From the NCBI RefSeq assembly GCF_037392515.1, contig NC_090285.1, positions 70,653,515-70,717,514 on the forward strand: a stretch of 64,000 nucleotides of DNA, written 5' to 3'. Positions 11,432-28,921 of this stretch are shown piece by piece (positions within the stretch are counted from its first letter, which is position 1; each line of letters opens with the position of its first letter). A program made the translations under genes and the position numbers. The stretch is from Haliotis asinina (taxonomy: Eukaryota). The notes beneath the pieces are model-generated. The model worked only from the letters and a program-made list of their open reading frames with translations, searched no databases and was not told where the DNA came from.

Positions 11432-11788
11432 AGAGTATAGAGTATCAGTGCAATGGAGTATAGAGTATCCGTGCAATGGAGTAATGAGTATCAGTGCAAT
11501 GGAGTATGGAGTAATGAGTATCAGTGCAATGGAGTATAGAGTATCAGTGCAATGGAGTATGGAGTATAGAGTACCAGTGTAATAAAGTATAGAGTATCAG
11601 TGCAATGGAGTATAGAGTATCAGTGCAATGGAGTATAGAGTATCAGTGCAATAGAGTATAGAGTATCAGTGCAATAAAGTATAGAGTATTAGTACAATGG
11701 AGTATAGAGTATCAGTGCAATAAAGTATAGAGTATTAGTGCAGTGGACTGAAGAGTATCAGCGCAATAAAGTATAGAGTATCAGTGTG
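11432..11788. repeat. Minisatellite, ~27-28 bp unit (agtatagagtatcagtgcaatggagtat), ~13 copies
   Basis: Directly visible tandem repetition. Confidence 0.85.
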
Positions 11789-12522
11789 ATTGAATTATTC
11801 CATCATCATCATCTCTTGTGTTCTCATATTATCGTGGCAGAAAGTTTGAGTATTGTAAGTAAAATACTGACAGTGTATGGCCTGATCTAGGATATAAACA
11901 AGCTGTAACTCAGTGTACGTGTATGTTTGCATCTTGTTGTGTTATGTAATCAAGTTGTAAGTCATAACACTAAATCCATATTTAATCTTTGCAGGTGTTA
12001 GAGACCTTGAGTAAATCTAGCTTTGTAGTTACCTGCTTTATGGTTTAAACAAGGGATCAGGTGGATTGTATTATTTAGGCAAGTTTAGCTAAACTATAGG
12101 CCTCGTTGTGACTTAGACTTGTGGCCCTTAGATGCTTTAAAGAGAAAATTCTCATTTGGTGTTGAGCAGAGCGGAACTGTTACTCTGGTATTTGAAATAT
12201 TCGTGTGTACAATATGCTGGCCTGCTGTAATGTGGGTTGATAGTGTAACATGATGTTGCTGATAGTGAAACAGACATGGATCTGTGATTCCTTGTTGTTT
12301 GTTGTGTTTTCACTATTCCAGTAAACCCAGCATGTCAAACCCGAAATCATCGTCATGTATTGTACCATGGTGTTATGATAGGTATCGAATCCTGACTCTG
12401 GGTTTGACAAACACATCTTAACCACTAGTTAAGCAGCCACACTGTATCAGACTTACTTCACCTCATTCAGTCACATGGAAATATATGAATTGGATATTGC
12501 CAACTCAGAAACAGCTTGTGCG

Positions 12523-12684
12523 CTACTGCAGCTCACCTTTACAAGTGTGTGTATAAATACAGTTATAACAACATGGGAGACTTTTTGTGGTATCTCTGTT
12601 ATACAAGGCCTTCTGTAGCTCACCTTTGTAACTGTAGGTATAGGTACAGTTATAACATCAGAAACTTTTTATGGTATCTGTGTT
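12523..12684. repeat. Host ~77-bp satellite, about two monomers, abutting the left end of the Polinton-like element
   Basis: Same monomer family (ctgcagtagctcaccttcacaactgtgtgtataggtacagttataacatgggagagtttgatggtatctgtgttacacaagg) as the array at 28307..28921 and the monomer at 26977..27062. Confidence 0.8.
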
Positions 12685-12988
12685 AGTAGTATAGGGAATG
12701 ATAGTTCTGGCTCACTTTCAAGAAATGTCTCTACAAAGCCTTATTTACTAAATAAGGCTTTGGTTGGGTCATTAGCTCTTGCTACTATTACCCCTACTAC
12801 AAAAAAGTTGGCGGTAATTACTGTGCCTTGGTAGGAGGTAACACTGTGCCGTACGGTACGATCAATAATTCTTCTCTTACAAATCCCCTACCCGGCCCAT
12901 CCCTCAAGTAGTATAAGTTAGGTTCGTCGGCTTTCATATCCACTTTATCTATGTTGTAAGTTTTGACTGACCATATAGGATCGGTGGC
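12685..12988. repeat. Left terminal inverted repeat of the Polinton-like element
   Basis: 100% identical to the reverse complement of 26673..26976. Confidence 0.9.
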
Positions 12989-13783
12989 TCGCTTACGGCT
13001 ATCGCCCTCGTGTTCCCCCGGCTGGTATAGATACCTCACTAGGGCCCTATCTGGTATTTGTTTCTCCTTCCCACGCAATGGAGCGGCCGACTCTGCAACT
13101 ATTGATTTTAGTTTGATAGCGTCTGCCGGTTTCTTACCGGTGAGACGGGTGACTTCATGGTTGATTGCCGACACCACCTTGGGTAACCTCGTGACCCATT
13201 CAGTCGATCGTTTTCCAGGGGTGGTCATCTCCCTAGCATACTGATAGCCGAACAAGCGCTCAGCCAAAGTCCTATTAAATCTCTCAACTATGGCTTGGCT
13301 GCGATGGGCTCCGGCCGTGCCACGCCTGACCTTTGTATCGTGTTTGGCTAGCAGTTGTGACACGGCACCCATGAACTCCCGTCCGGGGTCAACTTGCAGC
13401 TCTGTTGGCCACGTCAGTGGGCTGCGTTTGTATATGCGTTCAAATCCTCTGGCTACCTGGGCCGAATCTTTCGTGGTCAAGGGTTCGGCTTCCTTGTAAC
13501 GACTGGCTACATCCACTACGGTTAAGGCATACTTGTACCTCTTGTCGTGGGGTAGGAACAGTAGGTCTGCCTGGTGAATGCTATTAGGTATGTTAATACC
13601 GAACCTCCTAGGCACGTAGCGTGGTGCCGGTAAATAGATCTGCCACAGGGCTTGTTTTTTAAGCCACGCTTTGGCTTCCTCCGGGGGTACTCGCGCTAGT
13701 TTAGCTAGCTTATCTACTGCGCTAGCTCCTTTCCAGTACCCACGCGGGCTGTAGTAAATAGCCTCAAATTTTTTCATGTCCAT
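12818..13783 (-). CDS. Retroviral-type (rve, DDE) integrase, 321 aa. The C-terminal ~57 aa (SH3/chromo-like?) are encoded inside the TIR.
   Basis: Catalytic signature in the ORF: HQADLLFL (D), TVVDVASRY (D), and the canonical ERFNRTL motif (E) in AIVERFNRTLAERL. Confidence 0.9.
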   Translation of the reverse strand: MDMKKFEAIYYSPRGYWKGASAVDKLAKLARVPPEEAKAWLKKQALWQIYLPAPRYVPRRFGINIPNSIHQADLLFLPHDKRYKYALTVVDVASRYKEAEPLTTKDSAQVARGFERIYKRSPLTWPTELQVDPGREFMGAVSQLLAKHDTKVRRGTAGAHRSQAIVERFNRTLAERLFGYQYAREMTTPGKRSTEWVTRLPKVVSAINHEVTRLTGKKPADAIKLKSIVAESAAPLRGKEKQIPDRALVRYLYQPGEHEGDSRKRATDPIWSVKTYNIDKVDMKADEPNLYYLRDGPGRGFVREELLIVPYGTVLPPTKAQ

Positions 13784-16700
13784 ACGCGTATGTGTTTATA
13801 CCATCAATAGCTATCCAACGTTTCGTGTCCATAGGCGATAGGGACGTCTTGTTTATAGTCAGTCCGTATATCTTATGCCCATCACTTCTAAGTGTGTTCA
13901 TTTTATGTCTAAAGGTACGGGTCTTGAACAGGGCTTCCTTGAATCTGGCGTGTTTGATGTGTTGTTTCACCACATACTTAACCCCCTTAGCCTTCCGGAT
14001 CTCACTATTGTCGGCTTTCAGTATGGAGTACATCTTAGGTCTCAAACCTATGTACTCGGCTATGGGCGTGCCAGCACACTCGTCCTTCATCTTACCTAGG
14101 ACCTTTTTATTTACCGTACTGTGTAGGGCATGGGTCTTAGGGTAGTCGCTGGTGTCGTATAAATCGAGGTGTTTTTTCATGTCCTCGTACACGTCCTCGG
14201 TTCGAATCTCCATCAGCAGGGAATCCGTGTCAGTGTACAGCACTTCACACCTGTCACCGTACTGTTTCTTGAGCTCGTTGTAGTAAAAGTCGTACATCAG
14301 GTGTTTGGATAAATCGAGGATGCTCATCCCCACGTAAACAGGCCGGTTGAATTTTATGTGGCTTTTCTTCATGTGTAGGGCAACCAGGTTGTCTGTGAAT
14401 ATCTTACTACGGTTGAATGCCGGACTGGCTATCAATTTCCTGAGCTTGTCTTCCTCACTAGATCTAACCAGCTTCACGGTCACGCGTTTCCTCAGGTTCT
14501 CCATAGTCTTACCAAACACCGAGTTGTTCATGAGCTTGTAGAGATTTTTCTCAAAATCACTGGTGGCTTTTTTTCGTAGGTCTGTGTTCATTCTGATGTA
14601 GGGCTCCATCCATGGGCTCTGGTCGAACATGAGCACCCTGTGTATTTTGGTCAGCCTCATACCCAACGACAGGTACAGCTGTAGGTTGCGATAGTGAACG
14701 ATATACTTGGTCTTATTCATTAAGTTAGGCACGAGTTTTTCAACGTCTGTCACACGCCCACCTAACAAGTTATGTTGGTACTCAGACATCCAGTCTGTAT
14801 TAACCCTCATACGTTCGGGTGCAAGGGGATAGCTGTTGTGCGATGTGTGTAATTCCTTGGGATACTCTAAGTCAACTTCGAGGATATACCCTTTGTTCGA
14901 ATCTGGTGCAACCTCCATAACATCAACGTGGGGTACCCATTCGAATCCCCCTGTAGGTAGATACTGGCTCATGGCCCAGCCGTACAGGTTGTTTGCGTCG
15001 AGGTAGAGAATGTGATTGGTTGGTTTGTTAGGATCGTAACCTTTCACGTATTGATTATTTGCTTTAGCGTATCGTTTGGATGCCATGGAAATCCCACCTC
15101 GCAAGCCTTTCTCAATGAATAGGTGCATGTCGTAATCTGTGAGCAATTCCAAATTAACTCCGGTCTTTTTAAGCAAGGCGTCCCACGACAGACCTGGGCT
15201 GGTGTAATACCATGCGGGGTCGAGTTTATACTGCTTTAAACATGTCTGCCGAAACGTTTCAAACACGTCGGCTAACAGCAGTACATCTGTCCTCAAGTAC
15301 AGGTCGTGATAATCACCCAGGTTCTTACAACCCAGTTTATTCCATACGTTAGTCGCGTGCGAGTAATCATCTCGTGAGACGGACGCCTCATTCAGCTTGC
15401 TATAAAAGCAGTCAATAGGGGGTAGTCTGGTCTCGGTGAACTTGGCCCAACTATCCATGTACTCATAGGGGTACACACCCTTCCTCATAAGCAGGGGTCT
15501 AGTCTCGGCGTCTGTGTATCGATCGGTGATAGGGAAGGTATTGTTGGCCTTGACCAGACTGTCGAGTGACGACAGGAGGAACTGAAACGAGTCAATGAAC
15601 CTAAGTCCGTTTAAGCTGAAGGAGATGTATCTCTCCATGTTGTTGGGGATGCACGTTATATTACCATCGATTTTCGCGATGGCCTGCATGATCAAGTGTG
15701 AGTCGTACCCTCTCAAGTTGTGAAAGACAACGGGGATGTTTATTGTCTTAGGGTTGATTTTAAGCTTGAGGTTGCACGCGTTGTGAGCGGCGCCTCTATA
15801 CTTACCAGTTATGTGGCAGTGATCTCTCACCGAATCACCGTTAAGTGGTGAGTCGCACACGTGACAGTTAGTGCTACTAGCGTGAGCTAGCCTGTCGGCT
15901 CGGGTCATACGCATGGGAGCGATTCTATACAATGCATTCCTAATAATTTTTTCTTCCTCCTGCAAACACTTTAGAAACCTTTCAGCCGCGTCAGGGCCCC
16001 TATACACTACCGGAGCTTTCGTTTCCCCGTCACAACGGACGACAATGTATCCAAACGAACAGGCTTTATGCTCTTGTGTCTTGTGGGTGAAGCTACCACT
16101 GGGAGCCTCGCCGGCGGCAGCACTGGGGTGTGTGGGGGATTCCCCCACAACTAAGGCTTCGAAGTCGGCGTATATAATATAAGGTACAGACATTTGGTTC
16201 TTGTGGTTACTGAATTTTAGGATATTTTCACCTTCCTTAGGCATGTCGACTCGTATGGCCGTCTGCCCCACACCTTGGCAATCATCCCGGTGGGATTCTA
16301 ATAAATCAGCTCGACTGAAACCGTGTAGGCATCGTACACAAAAGTGTTTTTCCCCAACGTGTTTCGACTGGTCGTGCAACAACCGGCTGAGATGTTTTAT
16401 CCACGTGTAGTGATACTTTTCACCTCGCTGGATCATGAATATATTGATAACTTGGCGATCCTTCACCGGGCTGACCCTGTGTACTATTGTTGTGTTACCT
16501 TCGTGCCCAAAGACATTTATAGCCAGATTATTCTGTTTTTCTACTTTAGTGATCTGGGATATTGGGGTGGGTTCATCTATACCATCCCAATTAAGCCCAT
16601 CGTCTTGGGGATAGCTAGAAAGCCTATCTGAATTCTTGCCAGCTGGAAATAAGGCTGACCTGATAGCTAACCTCAGGCAATCGTTTCCTCTATTCTTAAC

Positions 16701-17504
16701 GTTTACTATGGCATGTTTGTTCCTATAGTAGGGAGGCAAGGCTAGGTATGACCCGCCTCTGAACGGCACGTAGTTAGCTATGTCTAGATAGACATTATCG
16801 ATTTTATCTACAGCCCACCCGGACCCCAAGTGTGTGTAGCGTTCTAGGTATTCTCGTATCTGCTGAAAACTGGTATCGATTGATGCGTCAATGGTCTCTG
16901 CATGTGTGACGACCTCTTGTTTACCTCGGAAGTAAGGCTGAACATACTCAGTGGTACTCCCAACCTGCTTATCGAGCGACATTTTCACTGTGATCTGAAA
17001 CTTGATACTTCCTAGGTTATTTAGTTCCTGGTTGATCTTATCAGCTATCAGAGGCTTGATATCTGTAATGTCTATGTTTCTATCAACGCGCATGCGCCAA
17101 CCTCTCAAATAATTGCCTACGGCGTGCTCAGTGCGCACGAACTGTAGGTCAATAGCTCTATTCTGTCGTAATAATTCTATAAGCTGTGGTTTTCTCATAC
17201 GGGAATACCCGCCTAAACCCAAATCGTGTGCCTCGACTTTCAGTTGTTTTACAGTGGGAGGTTTTGCTACGGGGGCATGTGATAACAATGCGGTTAACCC
17301 GGCTCTCCCCAGGTTTGAATAACCCGTGTATCCAAGCTGTTTTGCTTGAGCTTTTAATTGTTTTATTGTAGGAGGGGCTTCTAAACCTAGTAATCTCAAC
17401 AATGCTGACTTCCGCATTCTAGAATACCCGATGACACCTCTCTGTTTTGCGACCCGCTTGAGCTCGCTTACAGTAGACATCGTGTTTACACCTAAGAGAA
17501 CCAA
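13764..17504 (-). CDS. Protein-primed family-B DNA polymerase (pPolB), 1246 aa. It carries three N-terminal HeH/Rho_N-like repeats and a Cys/His Zn-finger-like segment before the exonuclease domain.
   Basis: Exo I YIIYADFEALV. PolB motif A LYLDANNLYGWAMSQ (= Dx2SLYPS class). Motif C VLYTDTDSL (= YxDTDS). N-terminus ELKRVAKQRGVIGYSRMRKSALLRLL / QLKAQAKQLGYTGYSNLGRAGLTALL / QLKVEAHDLGLGGYSRMRKPQLIELL. The ORF overlaps the integrase ORF by 20 nt. Confidence 0.92.
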   Translation of the reverse strand: MVLLGVNTMSTVSELKRVAKQRGVIGYSRMRKSALLRLLGLEAPPTIKQLKAQAKQLGYTGYSNLGRAGLTALLSHAPVAKPPTVKQLKVEAHDLGLGGYSRMRKPQLIELLRQNRAIDLQFVRTEHAVGNYLRGWRMRVDRNIDITDIKPLIADKINQELNNLGSIKFQITVKMSLDKQVGSTTEYVQPYFRGKQEVVTHAETIDASIDTSFQQIREYLERYTHLGSGWAVDKIDNVYLDIANYVPFRGGSYLALPPYYRNKHAIVNVKNRGNDCLRLAIRSALFPAGKNSDRLSSYPQDDGLNWDGIDEPTPISQITKVEKQNNLAINVFGHEGNTTIVHRVSPVKDRQVINIFMIQRGEKYHYTWIKHLSRLLHDQSKHVGEKHFCVRCLHGFSRADLLESHRDDCQGVGQTAIRVDMPKEGENILKFSNHKNQMSVPYIIYADFEALVVGESPTHPSAAAGEAPSGSFTHKTQEHKACSFGYIVVRCDGETKAPVVYRGPDAAERFLKCLQEEEKIIRNALYRIAPMRMTRADRLAHASSTNCHVCDSPLNGDSVRDHCHITGKYRGAAHNACNLKLKINPKTINIPVVFHNLRGYDSHLIMQAIAKIDGNITCIPNNMERYISFSLNGLRFIDSFQFLLSSLDSLVKANNTFPITDRYTDAETRPLLMRKGVYPYEYMDSWAKFTETRLPPIDCFYSKLNEASVSRDDYSHATNVWNKLGCKNLGDYHDLYLRTDVLLLADVFETFRQTCLKQYKLDPAWYYTSPGLSWDALLKKTGVNLELLTDYDMHLFIEKGLRGGISMASKRYAKANNQYVKGYDPNKPTNHILYLDANNLYGWAMSQYLPTGGFEWVPHVDVMEVAPDSNKGYILEVDLEYPKELHTSHNSYPLAPERMRVNTDWMSEYQHNLLGGRVTDVEKLVPNLMNKTKYIVHYRNLQLYLSLGMRLTKIHRVLMFDQSPWMEPYIRMNTDLRKKATSDFEKNLYKLMNNSVFGKTMENLRKRVTVKLVRSSEEDKLRKLIASPAFNRSKIFTDNLVALHMKKSHIKFNRPVYVGMSILDLSKHLMYDFYYNELKKQYGDRCEVLYTDTDSLLMEIRTEDVYEDMKKHLDLYDTSDYPKTHALHSTVNKKVLGKMKDECAGTPIAEYIGLRPKMYSILKADNSEIRKAKGVKYVVKQHIKHARFKEALFKTRTFRHKMNTLRSDGHKIYGLTINKTSLSPMDTKRWIAIDGINTYAYGHEKI

Positions 17505-17538
17505 TGTCTAATTGGTTCACAGTAAGGGGAGGTAACCC

Positions 17539-17799
17539 TTAAGTGGCTATCTTGAGCAGTCGCCTACGTTCTTTTATGTAGCCTTTTTTATTCTCGTAGA
17601 TGAGTTGATGTCTGACTACGTTCGCTCCGTGAGCTTTACATAGACAGTAGTGTCCTTTAACCCCGATACCACACACAGAACACGTGTAGTTAGGACTTCC
17701 CATATGGAAACAACAGAACCCCTGATTCCTGCATTTCCTACCACAGGCCTCGGTCTTCCCCATAAGTATGTATTCGCATCGGTATGGAGCGGGTCTCAT
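17539..17799 (-). CDS. Small Cys-rich (probable zinc-binding) protein, 86 aa
   Basis: ORF has many paired Cys/His: CGRKC...CCFH...CSVC...HYCLCKAH. Same strand as the neighbouring genes. Confidence 0.4.
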   Translation of the reverse strand: MRPAPYRCEYILMGKTEACGRKCRNQGFCCFHMGSPNYTCSVCGIGVKGHYCLCKAHGANVVRHQLIYENKKGYIKERRRLLKIAT

Positions 17800-17818
17800 G
17801 TTTACTTATATAGGTATT

Positions 17819-18244
17819 TTAATTTAATTGCTTCGCAACCAACGCAGTAGCTGCTATACCCAACACTATGAAGCCCAGTTCACGATTCATTTGTCCCTTG
17901 GATGGTGTGTAGTACTGAGCGAGTGTGGGTTTATTGAGCGGTTCCAATTGTTTACCAGTTAGTAGATAGTATTCTTTCATTGCTTCATCGACATCGTTGA
18001 ATGTTTGAACGGCATGGTTTTCACGCTGGAGTTGTTCGTTAATAAAATCGATCCTCTGGAGGCGTTTTTTAGCGTACTCGGCCTGTGCTCTTTGTAATTT
18101 CTCAGTAGCGAGATCGTGTCGCTTCCTTTCTTCCTGTATTTCAGCCGCGTGATCATCTCGTAGTTTCGAGAAGAGGAAATTACTCCCGGAAAATGCCAGG
18201 GCATTCACTAACGCCCCACCGACCATCATAGCTATCGTGGCCAT
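17819..18244 (-). CDS. Hypothetical membrane protein, 141 aa. N-terminal TM (MATIAMMVGGALVNALAFSG), central coiled coil, C-terminal TM.
   Basis: ORF in the same transcriptional orientation as the rest of the left-arm gene block. The hydrophobic segments are readable in the translation. Confidence 0.4.
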   Translation of the reverse strand: MATIAMMVGGALVNALAFSGSNFLFSKLRDDHAAEIQEERKRHDLATEKLQRAQAEYAKKRLQRIDFINEQLQRENHAVQTFNDVDEAMKEYYLLTGKQLEPLNKPTLAQYYTPSKGQMNRELGFIVLGIAATALVAKQLN

Positions 18245-18252
18245 CCCTATAT

Positions 18253-18480
18253 TTATTTCATTATATTATCAGGTATTATTCCTTGTTTTACTAGGATGTC
18301 TTTTGTGGCCATCGCCATACCAAGGTTCATTATGAGCATACCCATATCCTGCAGGTTGAAATCTAGCTTGATAGTTGGTTGTTTAAGCACCATTTTAGTC
18401 AACCGAGCGTACCCTACTGCTAGACTGGCTACCACTGTGGCGTGGTATACGTCGTTGACGAACGTTTTCCCCTCAGACAT
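18253..18480 (-). CDS. Hypothetical small protein, 75 aa
   Basis: ORF in the gene block, with an AT-rich region upstream of its start (18481..18510). Confidence 0.3.
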   Translation of the reverse strand: MSEGKTFVNDVYHATVVASLAVGYARLTKMVLKQPTIKLDFNLQDMGMLIMNLGMAMATKDILVKQGIIPDNIMK

Positions 18481-18506
18481 TATGTATATGATATAAAATA
18501 TTAAAA

Positions 18507-18818
18507 TTATAACATGATATGCGGGTCGACAGTGGGGCCTGCCGGCGGCGTGTGGGGTACCCCCACACCCCCAGGGTTTCCCTCAGTTCCCTCACGTGTA
18601 TATAACCATGTTATAACCACGGCAGCAGTTACACCTACAGCCAACAACAGTCGGGTTGGGTTGGCCGCTTTATGTTGGTTACACCACCGTTTTTTACCGG
18701 CAGCTACTCTCTTAGGATTCTTCTGCCTGGTTACTGTTGGGGGTACCCCCACTGGTGTCACTGGTTCCTGTGAAGGGGTCTCCTCCACTGTTTCCACTGG
18801 TTCCTGTGCAGCATCCAT
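18507..18818 (-). CDS. Hypothetical Pro-rich membrane protein, 103 aa. It overlaps the 3' end of the next ORF in another frame.
   Basis: ORF with a TM segment (LLLAVGVTAAVVITWLY) and a Pro/Gly/Thr linker (GVGVPHTPPAGPTV). Confidence 0.3.
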   Translation of the reverse strand: MDAAQEPVETVEETPSQEPVTPVGVPPTVTRQKNPKRVAAGKKRWCNQHKAANPTRLLLAVGVTAAVVITWLYTREGTEGNPGGVGVPHTPPAGPTVDPHIML

Positions 18819-19401
18819 CTATACTATTATTATTATTCTTTCTCTCAAATTGGCAATGTTTTGCTGTGATAATCGCCGCCGTCACTGGAGCCAACAACAT
18901 ACCATATTTGTGGTACAGCCCGCAGCTGATAGAGCTCACGGCGTGTTCGATAAAAGGGTCTTTCTCGAGGTCCTCCCACAGGTAAAGTCGGCGCTCTGGT
19001 GGAATGGGAAGGAAGTGTGATACAATACCGGTGTATATCTGGGTCATAGCCGATCCTATTGTCTTTGTCATTTCTGCTCCGAGCCGGGACTCGTATCTAG
19101 CGTATAGCTTATCGATTTCTTCGGCTGACATTTTGTGAATTTTATCCGGAGTGTAGTCTCCAAAATAATGTTTGGCTTTGCCGCCAACAGCCAACGCCAC
19201 CAGTTTCTCTCGCTTGGGGGAATCCCCCACAGTGGGGCCTGCCGGCGGCGTTGGGGAGACCCCCAACTGTTCGAGTAATTCCTCACACTCCATCTTATAA
19301 TATAACAAGTAAGATTTAGTTTTAACTATATAATACCCGATGCAGACAAAACACAGAGAAATGAAGGTTAAGTTGCACACGACAAATACTTCAAATATCA
19401 T
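18712..19401 (-). CDS. Hypothetical protein, 229 aa (an internal start at MECEELLEQ is possible). Contains the TPPAGPTV linker and a G/S/T-rich C-terminus.
   Basis: ORF in the gene block. No motif I recognise. Confidence 0.35.
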   Translation of the reverse strand: MIFEVFVVCNLTFISLCFVCIGYYIVKTKSYLLYYKMECEELLEQLGVSPTPPAGPTVGDSPKREKLVALAVGGKAKHYFGDYTPDKIHKMSAEEIDKLYARYESRLGAEMTKTIGSAMTQIYTGIVSHFLPIPPERRLYLWEDLEKDPFIEHAVSSISCGLYHKYGMLLAPVTAAIITAKHCQFERKNNNNSIDGCCTGTSGNSGGDPFTGTSDTSGGTPNSNQAEES

Positions 19402-19455
19402 AGCTATGCTTAGCTTTGCTTAGCTATGCTTAGCTTTGCTTAGCTTTGCTTAGCA
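19401..19455. repeat. 10-bp tandem repeat (TTAGCTTTGC / TTAGCTATGC, ~5.5 copies) in the intergenic region between the ATPase gene's 3' end and the next gene's start
   Basis: Directly visible: tagctatgcttagctttgcttagctatgcttagctttgcttagctttgcttagcat. Confidence 0.85.
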
Positions 19456-20055
19456 TACTATATATGCTACTGGTTGGTCGGTCTTTAGAACGAGCTTAGC
19501 GTGTTTAGTTTCAGCGAGCTGTTTCTTCACCCGTTCCCGTTCTAATTTACTCATCACATTGTTCTCTCTCAAACACTCCTCGAACGAATCCCTGTCCTTG
19601 CAGTGAAATAAGGCCACCCATCGCGTCTGCTCCCTGAGGTCTTTCAACACCGAGTTGAACTTCTGCGTTAGCACCCAGACGCTGTGATTTGCATGCCGGC
19701 CGGAGAAGGCCAGGTACGATAGCATGTCTCTCTTTTTTGTTATCTCGCGATTAGCGCTGCAGTCGTCCAGTATGAACAGCGTCGGTTCCCCTTTAAATTT
19801 CTCGTGAAGAGCTTTCAACCAGTCCTGCAGGCGTGTTCCAGGGTCGATTTTGTGTACGTCCGGGTCCGTCATCACCCAAGGTCGCGCGTACGTTTTATTC
19901 ATGCTCAGAGTAGGGCACATGATAACGATGTTATCGAACACATCCTTGTAGTAACCCTCCAACATATCCAACACGAAAACGGTCTTCCCACAGCCAGTCT
20001 GCCCGCACACTATGGCGCAGTGTGGGTCAGTGGGTAACCCCAGGGGGTACCCCCA
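19450..20055 (-). CDS. A32/FtsK-HerA-like DNA-packaging ATPase. It has no in-frame ATG upstream of the Walker A motif. The frame is open back to a TGA at 20056-20058, which is also the stop codon of the upstream ORF.
   Basis: Walker A GQTGCGKT. Walker B LFILDDCS. GRHANHSVWVLTQ resembles the poxvirus A32 GRHLNTSIILLCQ block. My own translation of the upstream region: TGA WGYPLGLPTDPHCAIVCGQTGCGKT. Confidence 0.8.
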   Translation of the reverse strand, partial: WGYPLGLPTDPHCAIVCGQTGCGKTVFVLDMLEGYYKDVFDNIVIMCPTLSMNKTYARPWVMTDPDVHKIDPGTRLQDWLKALHEKFKGEPTLFILDDCSANREITKKRDMLSYLAFSGRHANHSVWVLTQKFNSVLKDLREQTRWVALFHCKDRDSFEECLRENNVMSKLERERVKKQLAETKHAKLVLKTDQPVAYIVC

Positions 20056-21312
20056 TCAGTAGATGGCTTGCACGAATCTCCCATTGTCTATATTAAGTTG
20101 CGCGTCCATAATAACGTACAGATATAATTTCAACTTACCAGCGGTTTGAGCCTTCTTAGTAATCTGGATGGTTATCCCTTCGCTGCCGTTATCTATACGG
20201 CGCCCGCTACCGTGCAGTTTATCATCATCCGTGGATCGCATGTCCAACCATAGGGCGTACTTGGTGGTCAGGTATTCACCGATCTGCACGGAGCCGAGAT
20301 CCAGGTCCTTTGTTATGTAGTCCCCCACTGGTAGCTTTTTTATCTCATCCCACTGCTGGTGTGGTCTCATACCATGACTGAACAGCTGGTTGGGCACGCC
20401 CTCGATGGTAACTTCCACCTTTTCAATCTCGGGGTTGAAAAACTTCTCGCTGTCCCTCCGGAATGGATCGTAATCCTCCACGGGGACGACCAGGATACCT
20501 TTCATCGATCGCGCCGGCACGTTCAGGTTGATATTCCACACAGTGTCGCTCTTATCTCGCACGACTGATCTATGCCTCAGTACGCGATCGTACAGGATAG
20601 CCATCTTCCCAGAGTACTGGTTTCGAACCTGCCTGGCCAGCTCCGGGCTAGTGACCATGTCGAACTCCAGAGAGATGTTGTCTATGGCATAACTGGCCTC
20701 ATCACCGTTTGGTGTACGCACTACTTTGCTATAGTCGTTAAACGTGAGCTCGTATTCGAGCCTATCACCCAGCGCGGCCTGGTAAAACGGCGCGTGTCCC
20801 GTGAGCAACTCGAAGTCGAGCGGCACGCAGAATCGATTTCCGTATGCTCGAGCGATGGCCTTTTCACCGTCCGATAGCTTGTCTTGCTGGTCTGTCGTGA
20901 AGACGTATCCTATGCGCGCCCGGGTTGATTTGCTGATGCCCTGGTACACATCATTGACTCGTTCTCTCTCGCTTTTCCAGAGATCCTTGTAGCAGTGAAA
21001 CACGTCGCTGTCGTCGATGCTCAGCACCTCGTTACCGCTGATCTTGACGGTCGTTTTCTTGATGATAGCTCGACCCACGTTCCGCACTAGCTCGCGTTTG
21101 TCGTTGTCGGAGATCAACGTGATATTGAACGCCAGTCGAACAGTGCCTGGTACAATGAGGTCATTCTCACCAAGGTTTGGAAATCTAACCAGCAGAGTTT
21201 GATTCTGGTCTATCTTGCTGGGATTGTTGGTGATGGTCACCGACTGTCGCACGGCTCTGGCCCCTAATGGCTCTCTCAATCTTCTGAAAGGATCTAATTT
21301 TCTGCCGTACAT
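20056..21312 (-). CDS. Candidate jelly-roll capsid protein (putative major capsid protein), ~419 aa from MYGRKLDP
   Basis: Size and position (adjacent to the packaging ATPase) fit Polinton major capsid proteins. The N-terminal region is beta-strand-like (TLLVRFPNLGENDLIVPGTVRLAFNITLIS). I see no sequence motif that confirms it. Confidence 0.35.
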   Translation of the reverse strand: MYGRKLDPFRRLREPLGARAVRQSVTITNNPSKIDQNQTLLVRFPNLGENDLIVPGTVRLAFNITLISDNDKRELVRNVGRAIIKKTTVKISGNEVLSIDDSDVFHCYKDLWKSERERVNDVYQGISKSTRARIGYVFTTDQQDKLSDGEKAIARAYGNRFCVPLDFELLTGHAPFYQAALGDRLEYELTFNDYSKVVRTPNGDEASYAIDNISLEFDMVTSPELARQVRNQYSGKMAILYDRVLRHRSVVRDKSDTVWNINLNVPARSMKGILVVPVEDYDPFRRDSEKFFNPEIEKVEVTIEGVPNQLFSHGMRPHQQWDEIKKLPVGDYITKDLDLGSVQIGEYLTTKYALWLDMRSTDDDKLHGSGRRIDNGSEGITIQITKKAQTAGKLKLYLYVIMDAQLNIDNGRFVQAIY

Positions 21313-21344
21313 TGTTATATAAAAGAAATATATTTTTAATACTA
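21313..21344. promoter_or_regulatory. 32-bp AT-rich divergent intergenic region with a TATA-like element (ttatataaaag) between the capsid candidate (-) and the 396-aa gene (+)
   Basis: Start codons at 21310-12 (complement) and 21345. The sequence between them is tgttatataaaagaaatatatttttaatacta. Confidence 0.4.
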
Positions 21345-22502
21345 ATGGATGAAGACATAGATATGACGGAGATGCCGGGCGATAGTGCCCAGGCATTCGA
21401 TGAGCAGGAGACCTCATTTACTAGTTCACCATTGAACCAAGAACTCTTGGAAACAACGGTAAATGATTATTACGAAAGTTTAAGAAGAGATAAAAACTAC
21501 GTTGAACCACAGGGTCGATACCATAAGAATTTTTTTATTGATACAAAGGGTGTTCTACGCCTTAAGTCTGACCCAGGGGTTGACCTCTTTAACAAGAGCA
21601 ATAAAAAACCACTGGCCTTGTCAACTCTAGCCAGCCGCCATGGTGTCGAATTTATCCGTAAAAATCTAAACATGAATGATTACGGTGGTGCAATACCTAA
21701 GGCCGTTAAAGAAGATCTGCAAGCTACCAGATCCCACCTCACCACTAGAGATGAAATGACACCACAGCGTGCTACAGAAGCCTCGGACAGCATAGAAAAA
21801 CTGTTGAGCACCTACTGGGACAAACCGTTACCGGGGTTTGACTTTCCGGTAAGGGAACTGCGCGGCTTAGACGAAGCCGTGAAACGCGTGCGTGGAGAAC
21901 TCGTGAACAACATGGGGAAACTGAACGAAATCGACGAGCACATCGCTAGGGAAAAAACCAAACTCAACGAAACTGAAAACGATGATATGAAGCGTCGTAT
22001 CAATGAACGAATACGTGATTTAGAAGACGAGAGACGTACACGATTGGAAGCCGCTTCCTCGAATCGTGAACAGCTTCGATCCCAGATCAGTCGTATTCGG
22101 GAAACAATCGATAGAATACTGAATGAGGATACAACTTTAGCCAACAGGATTCGGATATTGTTCCGGGAGCAAGGGATCACCATCGCCAGTATTCTGACTG
22201 CATTGGGTTTCATCATATCAACCCTGGTGGTGTCACTGGTGGGAGGAACCCCCACACCTGCCGGCGGGGGAACTCCCACAGGCGGCGGGGTTAAAGACTG
22301 GATAAAAAAACTCGGGGAAGGCCTAGCTAAACTGGCTGGTAAAGCCGCCGAAGCCCTTCCCGGCATCCTGGGTAGCATCGTCTCGTGGTTGTTGGGCGCT
22401 CTGTCTAAAACTGCCATGTGGCTCAGTCAAAACCTGTGGGCAGCCATAGTCGCCGTGGTGGGTCTGGTGTACGTAGCGGCTAAGAAATCTTTAACCAAAT
22501 AA
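21345..22502 (+). CDS. Hypothetical 385-aa protein. Acidic N-terminus, long coiled coil, then a multi-pass hydrophobic C-terminus interrupted by a GGTPTPAGGGTPTGGG linker.
   Basis: Long ORF that starts at the first ATG after the AT-rich region. Heptad-like charged region (KLNEIDEHIAREKTKLNETENDDMKRRINERIRDLEDERRTRLEAASSNREQLRSQISRIRETIDRIL). Hydrophobic stretches (IASILTALGFIISTLVVSLVGG ... ILGSIVSWLLGAL ... LWAAIVAVVGLVYVAA). Confidence 0.45.
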   Translation: MDEDIDMTEMPGDSAQAFDEQETSFTSSPLNQELLETTVNDYYESLRRDKNYVEPQGRYHKNFFIDTKGVLRLKSDPGVDLFNKSNKKPLALSTLASRHGVEFIRKNLNMNDYGGAIPKAVKEDLQATRSHLTTRDEMTPQRATEASDSIEKLLSTYWDKPLPGFDFPVRELRGLDEAVKRVRGELVNNMGKLNEIDEHIAREKTKLNETENDDMKRRINERIRDLEDERRTRLEAASSNREQLRSQISRIRETIDRILNEDTTLANRIRILFREQGITIASILTALGFIISTLVVSLVGGTPTPAGGGTPTGGGVKDWIKKLGEGLAKLAGKAAEALPGILGSIVSWLLGALSKTAMWLSQNLWAAIVAVVGLVYVAAKKSLTK

Positions 22503-23691
22503 GTCCCAAAGTTACCCCACCAACCACCAGGGCTGTTTTATTATCGATGTGATTGGAGGCCTGAATATGGGGGTGTGTGGGGGGCACATGAACTTTAGGC
22601 TCCGGAGGTGGCGCCACTATACCCTTTTCACGTGGTGGGATGTGTGGGATATAGGGGGTGTTAATATCGGGGTTGATACCCAACTTTTGGTCCGCCGTGG
22701 CTATGACTATTTTGTTGTTATAACCCACCACTTTTTTTATTCTCAGTTGCATATCACTCGGAGCCATGTACAACCCCACGCCGAATACGTAATTGACTTT
22801 CGATCTGGCGTATTCTAACACGTTTTGGTAGCGTTCGATGGCCCGCGGGAGATCAACTGGAGAATTAATAGCATCCTCAACGTTGGCAACGAACTGTTTC
22901 TGAGCGTCGTAAGCAGTTCCCTTACCGATGATGTTGGAACGCGTTTGCGACTGCGCACCCAACAGCGCCCACACGTACGTTCGAATCGAGTCGTTCAAGC
23001 GTATTGTACCAGCACGAGTGAATCCTTTCGACGTGTCCAGCATGAACATTTTCCACCCGTCTGCGGTTGACTGCTCCACTTTCTGGACTGTGAAAGCAAC
23101 ACCACCTTTAAAGTTCATACGATCATCCCTCCATTCATTACTCGACAAAGCAAAGTCCTGGCGTAGTATATCTCGTTTCAGTAAATCATCACTGACTTCT
23201 TTCACTGATCGCGCGCCATCATAAGGAATACCCAACCCGTGGTTCGGCCCCGGCAAACGCCAATCCGTCTTCGGGTTTATTTCGAATTCATTGCAAATAC
23301 GTTCGTAGGCCCGTCTATCGTACGGGTTGTTTGTTGCGCCCCACGCTTTGTCCTGTGGGAGGGGGGCGCTGATCTCTTTAAGGATACGTCTGACCTGGTA
23401 GTACACGTGGAACTTGAACACAGACTGACTCAGCGGTCCACGCCGAGTGTCGGCCAATGTCACACCACACCCCGTTGTAGCGCACCACATGGCAAAGTTG
23501 AATTGATTCTGCCAGAACTGCATAGGGTTGTTGAACCAAGCGTGGACTGCCTTGATGTTAGTCACCGAAAGCTTATACTTATCGAACACATCCAAAAGCT
23601 GGGCATTGAAATACAACTCAGGAGCAACCACGATCTTCATGGGGGAGAAATCTACGTCCAGTTTAGGGTAAAACACACCAGGGGAATACAT
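22480..23691 (-). CDS. Hypothetical ~403-aa protein with a Pro-rich linker and a C-terminal TM anchor (TALVVGGVTLGLIWL). Alternative capsid candidate.
   Basis: Uninterrupted 1.25-kb ORF, whereas the opposite strand is fragmented. Convergent with the 385-aa gene (23-nt overlap). Confidence 0.4.
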   Translation of the reverse strand: MYSPGVFYPKLDVDFSPMKIVVAPELYFNAQLLDVFDKYKLSVTNIKAVHAWFNNPMQFWQNQFNFAMWCATTGCGVTLADTRRGPLSQSVFKFHVYYQVRRILKEISAPLPQDKAWGATNNPYDRRAYERICNEFEINPKTDWRLPGPNHGLGIPYDGARSVKEVSDDLLKRDILRQDFALSSNEWRDDRMNFKGGVAFTVQKVEQSTADGWKMFMLDTSKGFTRAGTIRLNDSIRTYVWALLGAQSQTRSNIIGKGTAYDAQKQFVANVEDAINSPVDLPRAIERYQNVLEYARSKVNYVFGVGLYMAPSDMQLRIKKVVGYNNKIVIATADQKLGINPDINTPYIPHIPPREKGIVAPPPEPKVHVPPTHPHIQASNHIDNKTALVVGGVTLGLIWLKIS

Positions 23692-23725
23692 TTTAAAACT
23701 ATTATATAATAAATATATATGTAAT
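23692..23725. promoter_or_regulatory. AT-rich divergent intergenic region with TATA-like elements between the 403-aa gene (-) and the 217-aa gene (+)
   Basis: ttttaaaactattatataataaatatatatgtaat lies between the two start codons. Confidence 0.4.
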
Positions 23726-24379
23726 ATGTACATAACACTTCCAGGAATAACGAGCGGTGAGGCCGTTCAGCTGACGCACGCGATCGATAACACGTCAGGT
23801 CAACTCGAAGTCGCACTCTGCGATATCACCTACCTACCGCAATGGACTAACATCAATATCAGCAACAATAAGCTGTTCGTCAGTGGAACTCGCAGCCAGA
23901 TAACTGACGGCTACTACAGTGTGTGCTCTCTAAACGACGAGGTCTTCAAACCCCTGGGAGCCGAACTCAAGATGAACGACTCAAACGGTACAGTGGTGTT
24001 AATCAACAACGGAAGAACCTCATTGAGGCTCGGCCGACCATTAGCGAGGATACTCGGTATGTCTCCTGACGAGATAAAACCAACAACAACCATCACAGGC
24101 ACGAAGTTACCCGACCTAGTACCGTACCGAGAGCTGTACATTCATCTCGGTCAGGTGAGCACAACGTATAACATTCAAGGAGGTCACCCTTCCACTATAC
24201 TGAGAGCAGTGCCGGTGAAAACTGAGAAATTCAACGACGGTAGAACCGAGTCGTTTTCACCACGGCAGTATAAGAGATTAACCCAGGGCAACATACCTGA
24301 GTTGACAATATCGGTGTTAGATATAAATCATAATCCTGTAAATATAGGATACCTCAGCTTAACGCTTCATGTAAAATGA
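23726..24379 (+). CDS. Hypothetical beta-rich 217-aa protein (possible minor capsid/penton-like protein)
   Basis: ORF with alternating hydrophobic beta-strand-like patterning. First of four tandem + strand ORFs with short (-4 to +10 nt) junctions. Confidence 0.35.
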   Translation: MYITLPGITSGEAVQLTHAIDNTSGQLEVALCDITYLPQWTNINISNNKLFVSGTRSQITDGYYSVCSLNDEVFKPLGAELKMNDSNGTVVLINNGRTSLRLGRPLARILGMSPDEIKPTTTITGTKLPDLVPYRELYIHLGQVSTTYNIQGGHPSTILRAVPVKTEKFNDGRTESFSPRQYKRLTQGNIPELTISVLDINHNPVNIGYLSLTLHVK

Positions 24380-25287
24380 CCAGCGCACAAGGGCCCGGAG
24401 TGAAAAAATGCGTCAATATCGGGATCTCCGACCTTGGAGACACGCGCGGTTTCGACGCTCCCGGAGTAGATGGTAAATCGTACGCCTTGCAACTGAAAAA
24501 CAACATTTACAAACGCGTTGAAATCCCCTCCGGTGGAACCCTAAGTGATATAGTAGATACCACAAGAGCAACAGTCAACACTAAGTACACCCTTGTCAAC
24601 ACCGGTGATAATAATTGGGTAATATACCCATCGTTCGGAGGTAAACTGTTCGACTTAGACGATGTTGAGAGCACTACCGTCGCCCGAAACAAGCCATATA
24701 TGCTCGTCTTCACCGAAGATGACAAGTGGGTGTTGTTACCCGATAACAACTGGTTTATCAATATTAGACTCGTCTCCCCCTACGTGTTCACTGATAACAA
24801 AGACAACCACCTAAACAAAGTCGTGAACAATGGAACCCTGCTCGTGGCTTACGTCCCAACTCAGAGACGTAGCATAGTCGTCAGCCCAGTCAACACTATA
24901 GCAGCCCACATGCTATCGAGTAAACCAGCCATACAAAACGTGAAATTGCAGTTGGTGTCTGAATTCGAAGGTGTGGTCACTATACTAGAGGATCTACCGG
25001 CAAACTCAACACTGATCATCAAAGTCTACCTAGGGGAACCATCGGGGAATGATGTCGAGATCGTGAAGGGGATCAAACTCGGGTGGGTGAAACGACACCA
25101 GTATCAAGTTTGCAACGTTTACGTGCGGGTGGGTGTCGACTCCAAGACCAGTCTGCAGGGGGTCAACGTGATCGTGGAAAACAAGATATCACTAATCAAT
25201 ATCTTCCTGCCTGACAACATACACTTCATGGGTATGAAGTTAACCCCTGAATTATTATCAGAAAACCAGTTGGAAATTATATCGTAA
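24376..25287 (+). CDS. Hypothetical 303-aa protein. Paralog of the next ORF; they share an N-terminal DLGDTxGFDxPG motif.
   Basis: MTS...DLGDTRGFDAPGVDGKSYALQLKNNIYKRVEI versus MTS...DLGDTEGFDQPGEEDELYILHFKDNVYRRVSL. C-terminal ...NQLEIIS versus ...RQLEIFS. Confidence 0.4.
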   Translation: MTSAQGPGVKKCVNIGISDLGDTRGFDAPGVDGKSYALQLKNNIYKRVEIPSGGTLSDIVDTTRATVNTKYTLVNTGDNNWVIYPSFGGKLFDLDDVESTTVARNKPYMLVFTEDDKWVLLPDNNWFINIRLVSPYVFTDNKDNHLNKVVNNGTLLVAYVPTQRRSIVVSPVNTIAAHMLSSKPAIQNVKLQLVSEFEGVVTILEDLPANSTLIIKVYLGEPSGNDVEIVKGIKLGWVKRHQYQVCNVYVRVGVDSKTSLQGVNVIVENKISLINIFLPDNIHFMGMKLTPELLSENQLEIIS

Positions 25288-25297
25288 TAGTATAATA

Positions 25298-26002
25298 ATG
25301 ACCAGTCATCATCCCAACACTACGCTTAACGACCTAGGAGATACGGAGGGATTCGATCAGCCTGGTGAGGAAGATGAATTATACATCCTGCACTTCAAAG
25401 ACAACGTGTACAGACGGGTGTCGTTATCAGATTTAAAAGAACCCAAATGGCTGATCAACTTAACAATCGCCTCACCTTATATCACAACAAAAGAGGGGTG
25501 GAAGTTTATCTCTAAGATTAGGAATAACGGTATCTGGCCCGGGGATTTCATTACGGGGAATGAAGCAACAGCCTCGGTATATTTTTATGAAGGAAAAATT
25601 GGATTAATTTCTGGAATAGAAAGTAAATTAACATTTAGCAGTATGTATTTACACGAAAGGCAGCTTGAGATATTCTCCCCCTACACAATCATCATAGAAG
25701 TCATCTTTACGTATTTTGACCAGGAAAACTCCTCGAAAGGACGTCAATTTTTACCCGGGGTGGTATTACACTGGTTTACCGAACACTTAGATCAATATTG
25801 CCGTATTGTTATACAACGGGATACCCCCACGGGTTCTATAAAACGTTTAATAAGCCTCCCTGGGGTTTTTATTACAACAGAAAAGTCTATTAGCCTCTCA
25901 CCAATTATCATTAGTTATGATCTATTCCTTATAGGCTTCAAATACATTGATAGACTATTAACTGAAACCCAATTAAAATATTTTTCAAAATATATATTAT
26001 AG
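25298..26002 (+). CDS. Hypothetical 234-aa protein, paralog of the 24376..25287 ORF
   Basis: See the paralog comparison above. Confidence 0.4.
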   Translation: MTSHHPNTTLNDLGDTEGFDQPGEEDELYILHFKDNVYRRVSLSDLKEPKWLINLTIASPYITTKEGWKFISKIRNNGIWPGDFITGNEATASVYFYEGKIGLISGIESKLTFSSMYLHERQLEIFSPYTIIIEVIFTYFDQENSSKGRQFLPGVVLHWFTEHLDQYCRIVIQRDTPTGSIKRLISLPGVFITTEKSISLSPIIISYDLFLIGFKYIDRLLTETQLKYFSKYIL

Positions 26003-26003
26003 G

Positions 26004-26621
26004 ATGGGTCTGTACCCAGTCGTAGAGGAAGTAGCGAAGACGCTGGAAACCGTAGATGGGTTCCGCTTGAGGCAGTTATGTGATGTGAAACGTCAACTAG
26101 AACAAGACCGTGACACGCGGAAAGCACTATGTAAAAAGTACAATAGAGCTTTCAATATCGTGGACGGGGTTGACACTACCCTTATGGCAACCAGCATGGG
26201 ACTAGGGGCGGCAGGTGTTGGATTGTTAGCTACCATCGTGGCTGCACCTATAGTGCTAGGTATTGAAATAACGGCTGGGGTGACAGGGTTGGTAGGGTTG
26301 GCGCTTAAGTTAGTATCACGCAGACTTAATCGTAAGGCATTGAAACACGACGAGATCAGGGTTCTGGCCGAAGCAAAGCTGAACACAGTGAGTGAGCGAA
26401 TTTCCACGGCACTCTCTGACAGTAAGATCTCAGAAGAGGAGTTTCGTTCAATCCTATCTGAACTCAAAAAATATAACGGAATGAAACAAGATATTCGGTC
26501 CAAGTCTCGTAAGTCTGCTATCAGCGAGGACGAGAAAAAAAAGTACATAGAACAGGGGATACAAAAAGCCCAGCAAGCCTTTATTATGAACACCAAAGAG
26601 ATCGTAGGCGGTTCACGTTAA
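26004..26621 (+). CDS. Hypothetical 205-aa membrane protein with a coiled coil. Ends ...EIVGGSR.
   Basis: ORF. Hydrophobic core (LMATSMGLGAAGVGLLATIVAAPIVLGIEITAGVTGLVGLAL) followed by a charged helical region. Confidence 0.4.
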   Translation: MGLYPVVEEVAKTLETVDGFRLRQLCDVKRQLEQDRDTRKALCKKYNRAFNIVDGVDTTLMATSMGLGAAGVGLLATIVAAPIVLGIEITAGVTGLVGLALKLVSRRLNRKALKHDEIRVLAEAKLNTVSERISTALSDSKISEEEFRSILSELKKYNGMKQDIRSKSRKSAISEDEKKKYIEQGIQKAQQAFIMNTKEIVGGSR

Positions 26622-26672
26622 ACTGTTTCATCGATATAAACATGACACAGGCACAGACGTTAAGTAGTAGGG

Positions 26673-26976
26673 GCCACCGATCCTATATGGTCAGTCAAAA
26701 CTTACAACATAGATAAAGTGGATATGAAAGCCGACGAACCTAACTTATACTACTTGAGGGATGGGCCGGGTAGGGGATTTGTAAGAGAAGAATTATTGAT
26801 CGTACCGTACGGCACAGTGTTACCTCCTACCAAGGCACAGTAATTACCGCCAACTTTTTTGTAGTAGGGGTAATAGTAGCAAGAGCTAATGACCCAACCA
26901 AAGCCTTATTTAGTAAATAAGGCTTTGTAGAGACATTTCTTGAAAGTGAGCCAGAACTATCATTCCCTATACTACT
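26673..26976. repeat. Right TIR of the Polinton-like element. It carries an orphan copy (no start codon) of the last 57 integrase codons plus the stop.
   Basis: Reverse-complement identity with 12685..12988. My + strand translation of 26673.. gives ATDPIWSVKTYNIDKVDMKADEPNLYYLRDGPGRGFVREELLIVPYGTVLPPTKAQ*. Confidence 0.9.
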
Positions 26977-27062
26977 GTGTTCCACAAGGACTACTGTAGC
27001 TCACCTTCATAATTATGTGTATAGGTACAGTTATAACATGGGAGACTTTTGATGGTGTTTTT
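26977..27062. repeat. Host ~77-bp satellite monomer immediately right of the element. It completes the monomer interrupted at 12684.
   Basis: gtgttccacaaggactactgtagctcaccttcataattatgtgtataggtacagttataacatgggagacttttgatggtg matches the satellite consensus. Confidence 0.8.
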
Positions 27063-28306
27063 GTTACATAAGGCAGGGGTGGAAAAGTCCCATTGCCCGA
27101 TGTACCAGTCTAGTCCTTTTTTCTGTTGGGCAAGCTAATTTGTTTATCACACTGTACCGGTGTTCAGTTGACTTTCCATTGTTAATTATGTTGTTTATTT
27201 TAATGATCAACAAGACAATTGGCTGGTATAATGGAAAAATTATCAGGGCAAGTGATTTTACAAGTGCCAGTGTACCGGGGTGCATTAGCAAATTCAAGAA
27301 TTATTTCCATCCCAGTACGGGCTTCGGTAACTCACCTTCACAACTGTGTGTATATATGAGGACTGTCCCCAAAGTGTTTGACCTCACCTGGACAGTTATG
27401 AAAATGGGACTGTTTTTATGTTTTATTTTTCTACATATCATCTGTGAAGCTCAAGCAAATTGTTTTTACCATGTCCCAGCCTCATGTTCCCCGTTTTGTT
27501 TCACTTTTTATCTTGGTACCCCCAGAAAACGCAAAATTAGCAATAAATTTATTATGAACTTCAGGAAACCAAACATGAAAGAAACATTTTGTGTGTTAGA
27601 GATAAGCAGAGGTCCCCTATAATTAAACGTAGCTATTAAAGTGCATAAAAATGCAATATGAAACTACAGTCACTTGTTAAAGTGACTCCGCACCGTGATG
27701 TTTACAGACAGAGCTTTTGGAAACACTACACACCCCCACTTTCAGATGACGTTAACAAAGGGGCATAACTAATTCTAATGTTTTCACTTATTCATGCATG
27801 ATGCCAAGGGTTCAAACAAAATACTGAATGGTCACACAGGAGTCAGCTCCTAATATGTTGTAAACACTGCCGACTTGAATTATCTGAACAAAATAATTTT
27901 GAAAGATTAAAATGGGTGTGTCCTTTAAAAACAACATCATCTAACTATAAATCAAGCGATCGAAAATTTTGAATGGTGATTATGACGTGAAGTCATCCAT
28001 ACCATACTGAACATATTTTATGTCATATTCTTTCTGAGCTCATGCCATCATTCAACTTGAATTTCAAGAGGTACCAAATGACTGATTGTTTTTCACATTC
28101 TGCAATGTTTAAAGAAATATTACACCCCAATGTGTTGAGATGACAAATATCTTGTGAACCACATAAACCACATTTATGAAATTCTGCATATACCTTTGCT
28201 AATGATTCTTTCAAAACTAAATAGAGCTTTTCTAGCATTGGACTTCGAGAATATAGTGAGGATGACCACTTTTTGGATACCCCTCTTAGGTAAGGTTGGA
28301 AAAGAC

Positions 28307-28921
28307 AGTTTGATGGTATCTGTGTTACACAAGGGCTACAGTAGCTCACCTTCACAACTGTGTGTATAAGTATAGTTATAACTTGGGAGAGTTTTGATGG
28401 TATCTGTGTTACACAAAGGCTGCAGTAGCTCACCTTCATAACTCTGTATACGTACAGTTATAACATGGGAGAGTTTGATCGTATCTGTGTTACACAAGGG
28501 CTGCAGTAGCTCACCTTCACAACTGTGTGTAAAGGTATAGTTATAGCATGGGAGAGTTTGATGGTATCTGTGTTACACAAGGGCTACAGTAGCTCACCTT
28601 CACAACTGTGTGTATACGTACAGTTATAACATGGGAGAGTTTGATGGTATCTGTGTTACACAAAGGCTGCAGTAGCTCACCTTCACAACTGTGTGTATAG
28701 GTACAGTTATAACAGGGGAGAGTTTTGATGGTATCTATGTTACACAAAGGCTGCAGTAGCTCACCTTCACAACTGTGTGTATACGTACAGTTATAACATG
28801 GGAGAGTTTGATCGTGTCTGTGTTACACAAGGGCTGCAGTAGCTCACCTTCACAACTGTGTGTATAGGTACAGTTATAACAGGGGAGAGTTTTGATCAGG
28901 ATACAGGAAAACTGTAGCTCT
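28307..28921. repeat. Tandem array (~8 monomers) of the same ~77-bp satellite
   Basis: Directly visible periodicity. The ORFs called here (28023..28439, 28541..28747) are repeat translations. Confidence 0.9.

Follow-up and report, generated by a model that had tools for sequence, protein, structure and literature searches.

Polinton/Maverick elements (Kapitonov & Jurka 2006; Barreat & Katzourakis 2021, PMC8097293) are virus-like, self-synthesising transposons with long terminal inverted repeats (TIRs) and mostly intronless open reading frames (ORFs). Those of vertebrates have been reported to end in an (AGT)2//(ACT)2 motif and to be flanked by target-site duplications that are perfect and 6 bp long (PMC8097293), and the duplications of Polintons range from 5 to 8 bp (PMC10748475). 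Here we describe an element of this kind in a 64,000-nucleotide stretch of Haliotis asinina DNA (contig NC_090285.1), hereafter the window. The element spans positions 12685–26976 (14,292 bp), and it is very probably a recent insertion within a single monomer of a short host tandem repeat with a period of 83 bp. It is like described Polintons/Mavericks in its 14.3-kb size, its long TIRs and its AGTAGT...ACTACT ends, and it carries, in mostly intronless ORFs, a protein-primed family B DNA polymerase (pPolB, here PolB), a retroviral-type (rve) integrase, an A32-type ATPase and a double jelly-roll major capsid protein (MCP). With its long AG...CT TIRs and short duplication, the element is a Polinton/Maverick, adintovirus-like, and thus a known kind of element and not a new type. 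Adintoviruses are a group reportedly described by Starrett et al. in 2021. Like adintoviruses and the Polintons of molluscs (Jeong et al. 2023, PMC10748475), the element is an animal-associated Polinton-like genome with virion genes. It is an unusually clean case of Polinton integration, with exact ends, an exact 5-bp duplication and an empty site that can be reconstructed.

The ends of the element and the repeat around them were read directly from the window:

12522..12684, plus strand: left flank, about two monomers of the 83-bp repeat (blastn and nhmmer of the consensus; 81–82% identity to the array consensus)
12680..12684: target-site duplication GTGTT, left copy
12685..12988, plus strand: left TIR, 304 nt, with terminus AGTAGTATAGGG; the 3' end of the integrase gene occupies nucleotides 134–304
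26673..26976, plus strand: right TIR, carrying a duplicated integrase 3' fragment (26673–26843)
26977..26981: target-site duplication GTGTT, right copy
26977..27073, plus strand: right flank, the remainder of the interrupted monomer and part of the next
28304..28892, plus strand: uninterrupted array of the 83-bp repeat, 7.1 copies, 94–97% identity to the consensus (Tandem Repeats Finder, blastn)

At the left junction the repeat runs to ...tatggtatctGTGTT (12680–12684) and the element begins with AGTAGTATAGGG at 12685; at the right junction CCCTATACTACT extends to 26976 and is followed by GTGTTccacaagg (26977–26981), in a longer read GTGTTccacaaggactactgtagctcacc. The element therefore reads 5'-AGTAGT...ACTACT-3', with GTGTT abutting each end. 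Its two 304-nt TIRs are 100% identical as inverted complements. TIR nucleotides 1–9 are AGTAGTATA and nucleotides 20–25 are GTTCTG, and both motifs are kept at element ends in five other assemblies; the boundaries are thereby set at 12685 and 26976. A first-pass annotation of the window had given a span of 12523–27062, which took in flanking monomers, and had quoted a far shorter inverted repeat.

Removal of the element and one GTGTT reconstructs the empty site. The left flank (12480–12684) joined to the right flank (26982–27110) aligns with the repeat consensus in register and free of gaps; the repeat stops at consensus position 20 on the left and restarts at position 16 on the right. The first-pass annotation had proposed a precise insertion within one satellite monomer, with joined flanks that rebuild the repeat, and both proposals are borne out by this alignment and by the GTGTT on either side. 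The joined 21-mer TGGTATCTGTGTTCCACAAGG matches the motif TGGTATCTGTGTTNCACAAGG, which occurs eight times uninterrupted within the window (≤3 mismatches) against 0.01 expected by chance. The predicted empty-site sequence is ...ctttttatggtatctGTGTTccacaaggactactg..., and the site can be used as a presence/absence marker for current mobility of the family in its host. By chance, a perfect 5-bp repeat would flank the element with a probability of about 1/1024, and the monomer would resume in the correct phase with one of about 1/83; the two together lie far beyond chance. A longer duplication of 88 bp (5+83) was rejected, because the 88 bp to the left and to the right mismatch at many positions.

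This site taken alone would allow a duplication of 5, 6 or 7 bp, since the terminal TIR bases 'ct' also fit the repeat consensus (CTGTGTT). We compared the ends with those of relatives, whole-element loci reached through MCP homologs, and scored duplication length at four of them (L004, L005, L006 and L010) and at the window copy. L001, L002, L003, L007, L008 and L009 were left out of the end comparison, as their termini differ, the end of the locus cuts them, or the copies are degraded or disrupted. L004, L005 and L006, all from one other assembly, start with AGTAGTATACAGAGG and finish with ...CTGTATACTACT, the terminus of the window element:

L004, 3522–19405: duplication TTTCT
L005, 3736–18607: duplication ATACT
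L006, 3920–19523: duplication CCACG

A 6-bp reading is impossible in L005 and L006. Since these relatives combine identical termini with perfect 5-bp duplications, the duplication in the window is 5 bp as well. The duplication that the first-pass annotation had put at 5–6 bp thus persists when the boundaries are refined with the relatives' ends; it narrows to exactly 5 bp, and the 6-bp alternative falls away. The lineage produces 5-bp duplications, unlike the 6 bp of vertebrate Mavericks, and the pairing of a 5-bp duplication with vertebrate-type (AGT)2 ends is a small refinement for annotation pipelines that demand 6 bp. Among the loci left out, L002 (4555–20614) is a more distant relative with different, G-rich termini (GGGGGGGCCGG...). 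Its duplication is ambiguous owing to a C homopolymer (possibly CCACCA), and its largest gene matches Rho_N and AAA_30 where a PolB annotation is usual.

The same junctions bear on the suspicion of an assembly error in which the Polinton-like genome of a free virus or episome was misjoined to repeat-rich host DNA. An exogenous virus genome would equally have perfect TIRs and mostly open frames, GC content differs between the element (45–49%) and its flanks (38–41%), and many relatives occur on contigs of 12–19 kb that are possibly free genomes. However, both junctions fall in one monomer, in phase and with a 5-bp duplication, which is the signature of an integrase and is not expected from a misjoin, and relatives integrated in megabase-scale contigs share this junction structure. 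An assembly artefact is therefore extremely improbable.

The period of the target repeat is 83 bp and not the 77 bp given in the first-pass annotation: Tandem Repeats Finder returned 7.1 copies at 28307–28892 with 91% matches, and the target motif is spaced at 81–84 bp. Consensus matches outside the array cover 12522–12685, 26975–27073 and a fragment at 27319–27354. The repeat thus amounts to about 163 + 97 + 36 + 589 bp within the window, less than 1 kb or some 11 monomers, in two short blocks. The monomer had no database match, four of its 19–20-mers were unmatched in a literature search, and the target motif had no matches in a metagenome scan. A scan with Rfam at gathering thresholds returned no matches.

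Two further features of this repeat were observed. A 245-bp non-repeat block (27074–27318) breaks the monomer next to the element; it is MITE-like (miniature inverted-repeat transposable element), having 12-nt terminal inverted repeats (CAGGGGTGGAAA / TTTCCATCCCAG) that match imperfectly, and no clean duplication is visible. In addition, a 17-nt motif (AGGCAGGGGTGGAAAAG / AGGTAAGGTTGGAAAAG) is found at two places where the repeat borders on non-repeat DNA, with AGGTAAGGTTGGAAAAG at 28288–28304, before the downstream array. We considered whether 27074–28303 represents simple insertions in one continuous array and rejected this for the part of about 880 bp, because the repeat phase does not carry on across it.

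The 83-bp repeat could itself be the internal array of another mobile element, MITE- or Helitron/Helentron-borne like arrays described in bivalves, in which case the Polinton would be nested within a transposon. Both arrays are very short, with about 2+1 monomers in one and 7 in the other, and some 1.2 kb of non-repeat DNA separates them; the 17-nt motif recurs at two of the repeat/non-repeat junctions, and other short arrays abound in the window. The C. gigas satellitome has been described (PMC8268682) as highly scattered, in a genome with very little heterochromatin built mainly of DNA transposons, and scattered bivalve satellite DNAs of that sort would be in keeping with a nested arrangement. 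Against it, no second copy of the flanks delimits such an element, and the monomer matches nothing in the literature or databases searched. We therefore treat nesting as possible but doubtful, and retain the simpler description of a Polinton/Maverick within a short host tandem repeat.

The enzyme expected to make such junctions is encoded at the left end of the element:

12818..13783, minus strand: retroviral-type integrase, 321 aa, with the DD35E triad D73/D132/E167

It matches Pfam rve (PF00665, E=2e-10), and D73, D132 and E167 are invariant across 45 integrase homologs. An AlphaFold2 (AF2) model (predicted local distance difference test, pLDDT, 67.7) was matched by Foldseek over 315–357 columns to the intasome integrases of prototype foamy virus (PFV; E~1e-12), human immunodeficiency virus (HIV), Rous sarcoma virus (RSV) and mouse mammary tumour virus (MMTV). 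The comparison with retroviral integration (e.g. HIV-1, with a 5-bp duplication) extends to a model laid out like the N-terminal, catalytic core and C-terminal domains (NTD-CCD-CTD), to a short duplication of fixed length and to conserved terminal nucleotides. Retroviruses differ in integrating a reverse transcript with TG...CA ends, whereas the window element is a DNA-replicated, TIR-bearing genome with AG...CT ends. A further departure, in this case from described Polintons/Mavericks, is that the integrase gene reaches into the TIR. Its last 171 nt (12818–12988) lie inside the left repeat and are duplicated at the right end (26673–26843).

The first-pass annotation had called the element a Polinton with a chromo-like integrase that had landed in satellite, perhaps heterochromatic, DNA. 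The Polinton and its retroviral-type DDE integrase stand; the chromodomain does not. Some Polinton 'c-integrases', reportedly described by Gao & Voytas in 2005, are said to carry chromodomains, and such proteins, like those of the chromoviruses, belong to the same integrase superfamily as the one described here. Yet rve was the sole Pfam match, and a scan of the C-terminal 86 residues gave none even with the threshold relaxed to E≤10. An hhalign comparison of the integrase CTD with a hand-typed chromodomain set was insignificant (probability 0.2%), as was one with an HIV CTD set; this outcome fails to support a chromodomain and cannot prove an SH3-like fold. In the model, beta-strands at 248–309 are followed by no helix, and the chain stops 12 residues past the last CTD strand. 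With phmmer, neither the integrase nor PolB gave a useful match among PDB sequences. By sequence and in the predicted structure, then, the integrase appears to have no detectable chromodomain.

These data bear on whether a chromodomain or other tethering domain steers this Polinton lineage into satellite or heterochromatic DNA. The element does interrupt a tandem-repeat monomer, and its small host array is broken at least once more, by the 245-bp block. But beyond the missing Chromo match, the integrase model can be aligned with retroviral integrases along its whole length and lacks a C-terminal helix. The three relatives with intact duplications (L004–L006) are all inserted outside tandem repeats; L005 is flanked by two fragments of a 2-Hacid_dh_C host gene. 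The four duplication sequences (GTGTT, TTTCT, ATACT and CCACG) share no common motif. Steering of this kind is thus very unlikely, and the landing in a tandem repeat was most likely incidental and not targeted.

Nor does the setting support a heterochromatic satellite. Unrelated short tandem arrays are scattered at 11426–11786, 35426–35623, 40786–41389, 44125–44685, 47634–49167, 57648–58870 and 59956–60225, with periods of 23, 16, 36, 44–53, 32, 80 and 49 bp, so the window is tandem-repeat-rich in general. A Tc1/mariner transposase remnant lies at 33924–34511 on the minus strand (HTH_Tnp_Tc3_2, E=1.2e-15). Some 11 monomers in short blocks within such a region give no evidence of heterochromatin, and the insertion has no bearing on questions of heterochromatin targeting.

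The replication and virion genes that place the element among Polintons/Mavericks are as follows:

13764..17480, minus strand: protein-primed family B DNA polymerase, about 1238 aa from ATG (ORF 13764–17504, 1246 aa)
19450..20084, minus strand: A32/FtsK-type packaging ATPase (Walker A ORF 19450–20055)
20056..21312, minus strand: double jelly-roll major capsid protein, 418 aa

PF03175 (DNA_pol_B_2) was absent from the matches when PolB itself was scanned with Pfam. The protein is, nevertheless, 61% identical over 1146 aa to an L006 protein with a PF03175 match, and motifs A, B and C of family B polymerases (YLDANNLYG, KLMNNSVFGK and YTDTDS) can be read in its translation. Residues 1–115 form three N-terminal Rho_N/SAP-like repeats (Pfam Rho_N). 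Residues 534–580 are an Endonuclease VII/HNH-type insert (Pfam Endonuclease_7, E=1.8e-5) that is also kept in L006 and, with motifs read from the translation, is placed between Exo I and Exo II. HNH inserts have been described as specific to the pPolB2 of oomycetes and terrestrial nematodes, and mollusc pPolB2 as carrying a VSR insert (PMC10748475); the window pPolB, which may be of either the pPolB1 or the pPolB2 class, differs from the mollusc Polintons in having the Endonuclease VII/HNH-type insert. The order and orientation of PolB and integrase (IN) vary even between close relatives, another difference from described Polintons/Mavericks: the module reads PolB-> IN-> in the window, IN-> <-PolB in L004–L006 and PolB-> <-IN in L010.

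The MCP has homologs that include a UniRef 'Major capsid protein' of Elysia marginata, and its AF2 model (pLDDT 60.8) matches the capsid proteins of PBCV-1 (Paramecium bursaria chlorella virus 1), SGIV (Singapore grouper iridovirus), Sputnik, mavirus and PRD1, with E down to 2e-12. Among homologs with a named source, the nearest belong to Elysia marginata and to contigs that had been binned with symbionts of lucinid clams. The A32-type ATPase was recognised at 19450–20010 on the minus strand (Pfam Pox_A32, PF04665, E=3e-8).

By homology with retroviral integrases, integration would have proceeded as follows. The element's own protein-primed PolB would make a linear double-stranded copy, and the DD35E integrase would recognise the conserved termini of that copy (AGTAGTATA...GTTCTG). 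The integrase would then join both 3' ends to target phosphates, attacking the two strands 5 bp apart, and gap repair would duplicate GTGTT. The perfect TIRs, the perfect duplication, the open reading frames and the GC contrast with the flanks suggest a recent arrival. It is a further, rather unlikely extension of this view that the AGTAGTATA termini and fixed 5-bp duplication, as against the 6 bp of vertebrate Mavericks, mark a currently active and possibly infectious marine-invertebrate lineage for which short arrays are tolerated 'safe-harbour' sites.

Several observations weigh against recent integration of an intact element under a strict 5-bp rule. L010 (1500–15888), whose integrase is the nearest to that of the window (73% identity), shares the AGTAGTATA termini and shows no duplication (ctata| |gggtc), so the rule holds in four of five elements and not in all five; its TIRs are more diverged, at 88.7% identity, and it is probably old or recombined. 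The Walker A ORF of the ATPase has no in-frame ATG: it shares the MCP frame, directly after the MCP stop (20058–20056), and the conserved ATG (20084–20082) lies in a frame that stops at 20012–20010. This apparent 1-nt frameshift, among G5/C5/G4 runs, may be either real or a homopolymer assembly error, and, lacking an in-frame start, the copy may be not fully functional. Described Polintons/Mavericks also differ from the element in that no protease family, such as that of the adenain/Ulp1-like maturation protease, was recognised in any of its ORFs by Pfam or PHROGs, with fold and remote-homology tests applied to some ORFs; the relatives' genes likewise have no precomputed protease matches. As to age, the ends of a protein-primed replicon may be repaired in its last replication cycle, so that the identity of the TIRs may not be a matter of age alone. 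Finally, neither a second copy of the exact family nor an empty allele was retrieved by exact look-ups of the integrase and the 205-aa ORF, for which nothing is on record, or by terminus scans, in which the 22-nt TIR terminus had no matches in viral and metagenome contigs; the argument for recent activity is accordingly drawn solely from TIR identity and the ORFs.

The remaining ORFs fill the element between these genes and the right TIR, and most are syntenic with relatives by tblastn:

17539..19401, minus strand: small conserved ORFs of 86, 141, ~70 and 229 aa, syntenic with relatives (tblastn), with no Pfam or PHROG matches
21312..24379: three conserved ORFs of 396 aa (plus), 417 aa (minus) and 217 aa (plus), with tblastn synteny to L004–L006 and no significant family matches
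24376..26002, plus strand: two tandem paralogous ORFs of 303 and 234 aa (mutual blastp E~1e-9 to 1e-12)
26004..26621, plus strand: conserved ORF of 205 aa, 44–47% identical to the terminal genes of L004–L006

As read from the translations, the 396-aa product has a coiled coil and a hydrophobic C-terminal tail, and the 205-aa product a hydrophobic central stretch. The 217-aa ORF (23726–24379), conserved in relatives, is at a guess a penton candidate. The tandem paralogs had no counterpart in relatives when searched by tblastn from the relatives' genes. They share an N-terminal LxDLGDTxGFDxPG motif and have the look of an accessory module specific to the lineage. A 10-bp tandem repeat, TAGCTTTGCT in 5.4 copies, occupies 19401–19454, where it separates the ATPase stop from the start of the 229-aa ORF.

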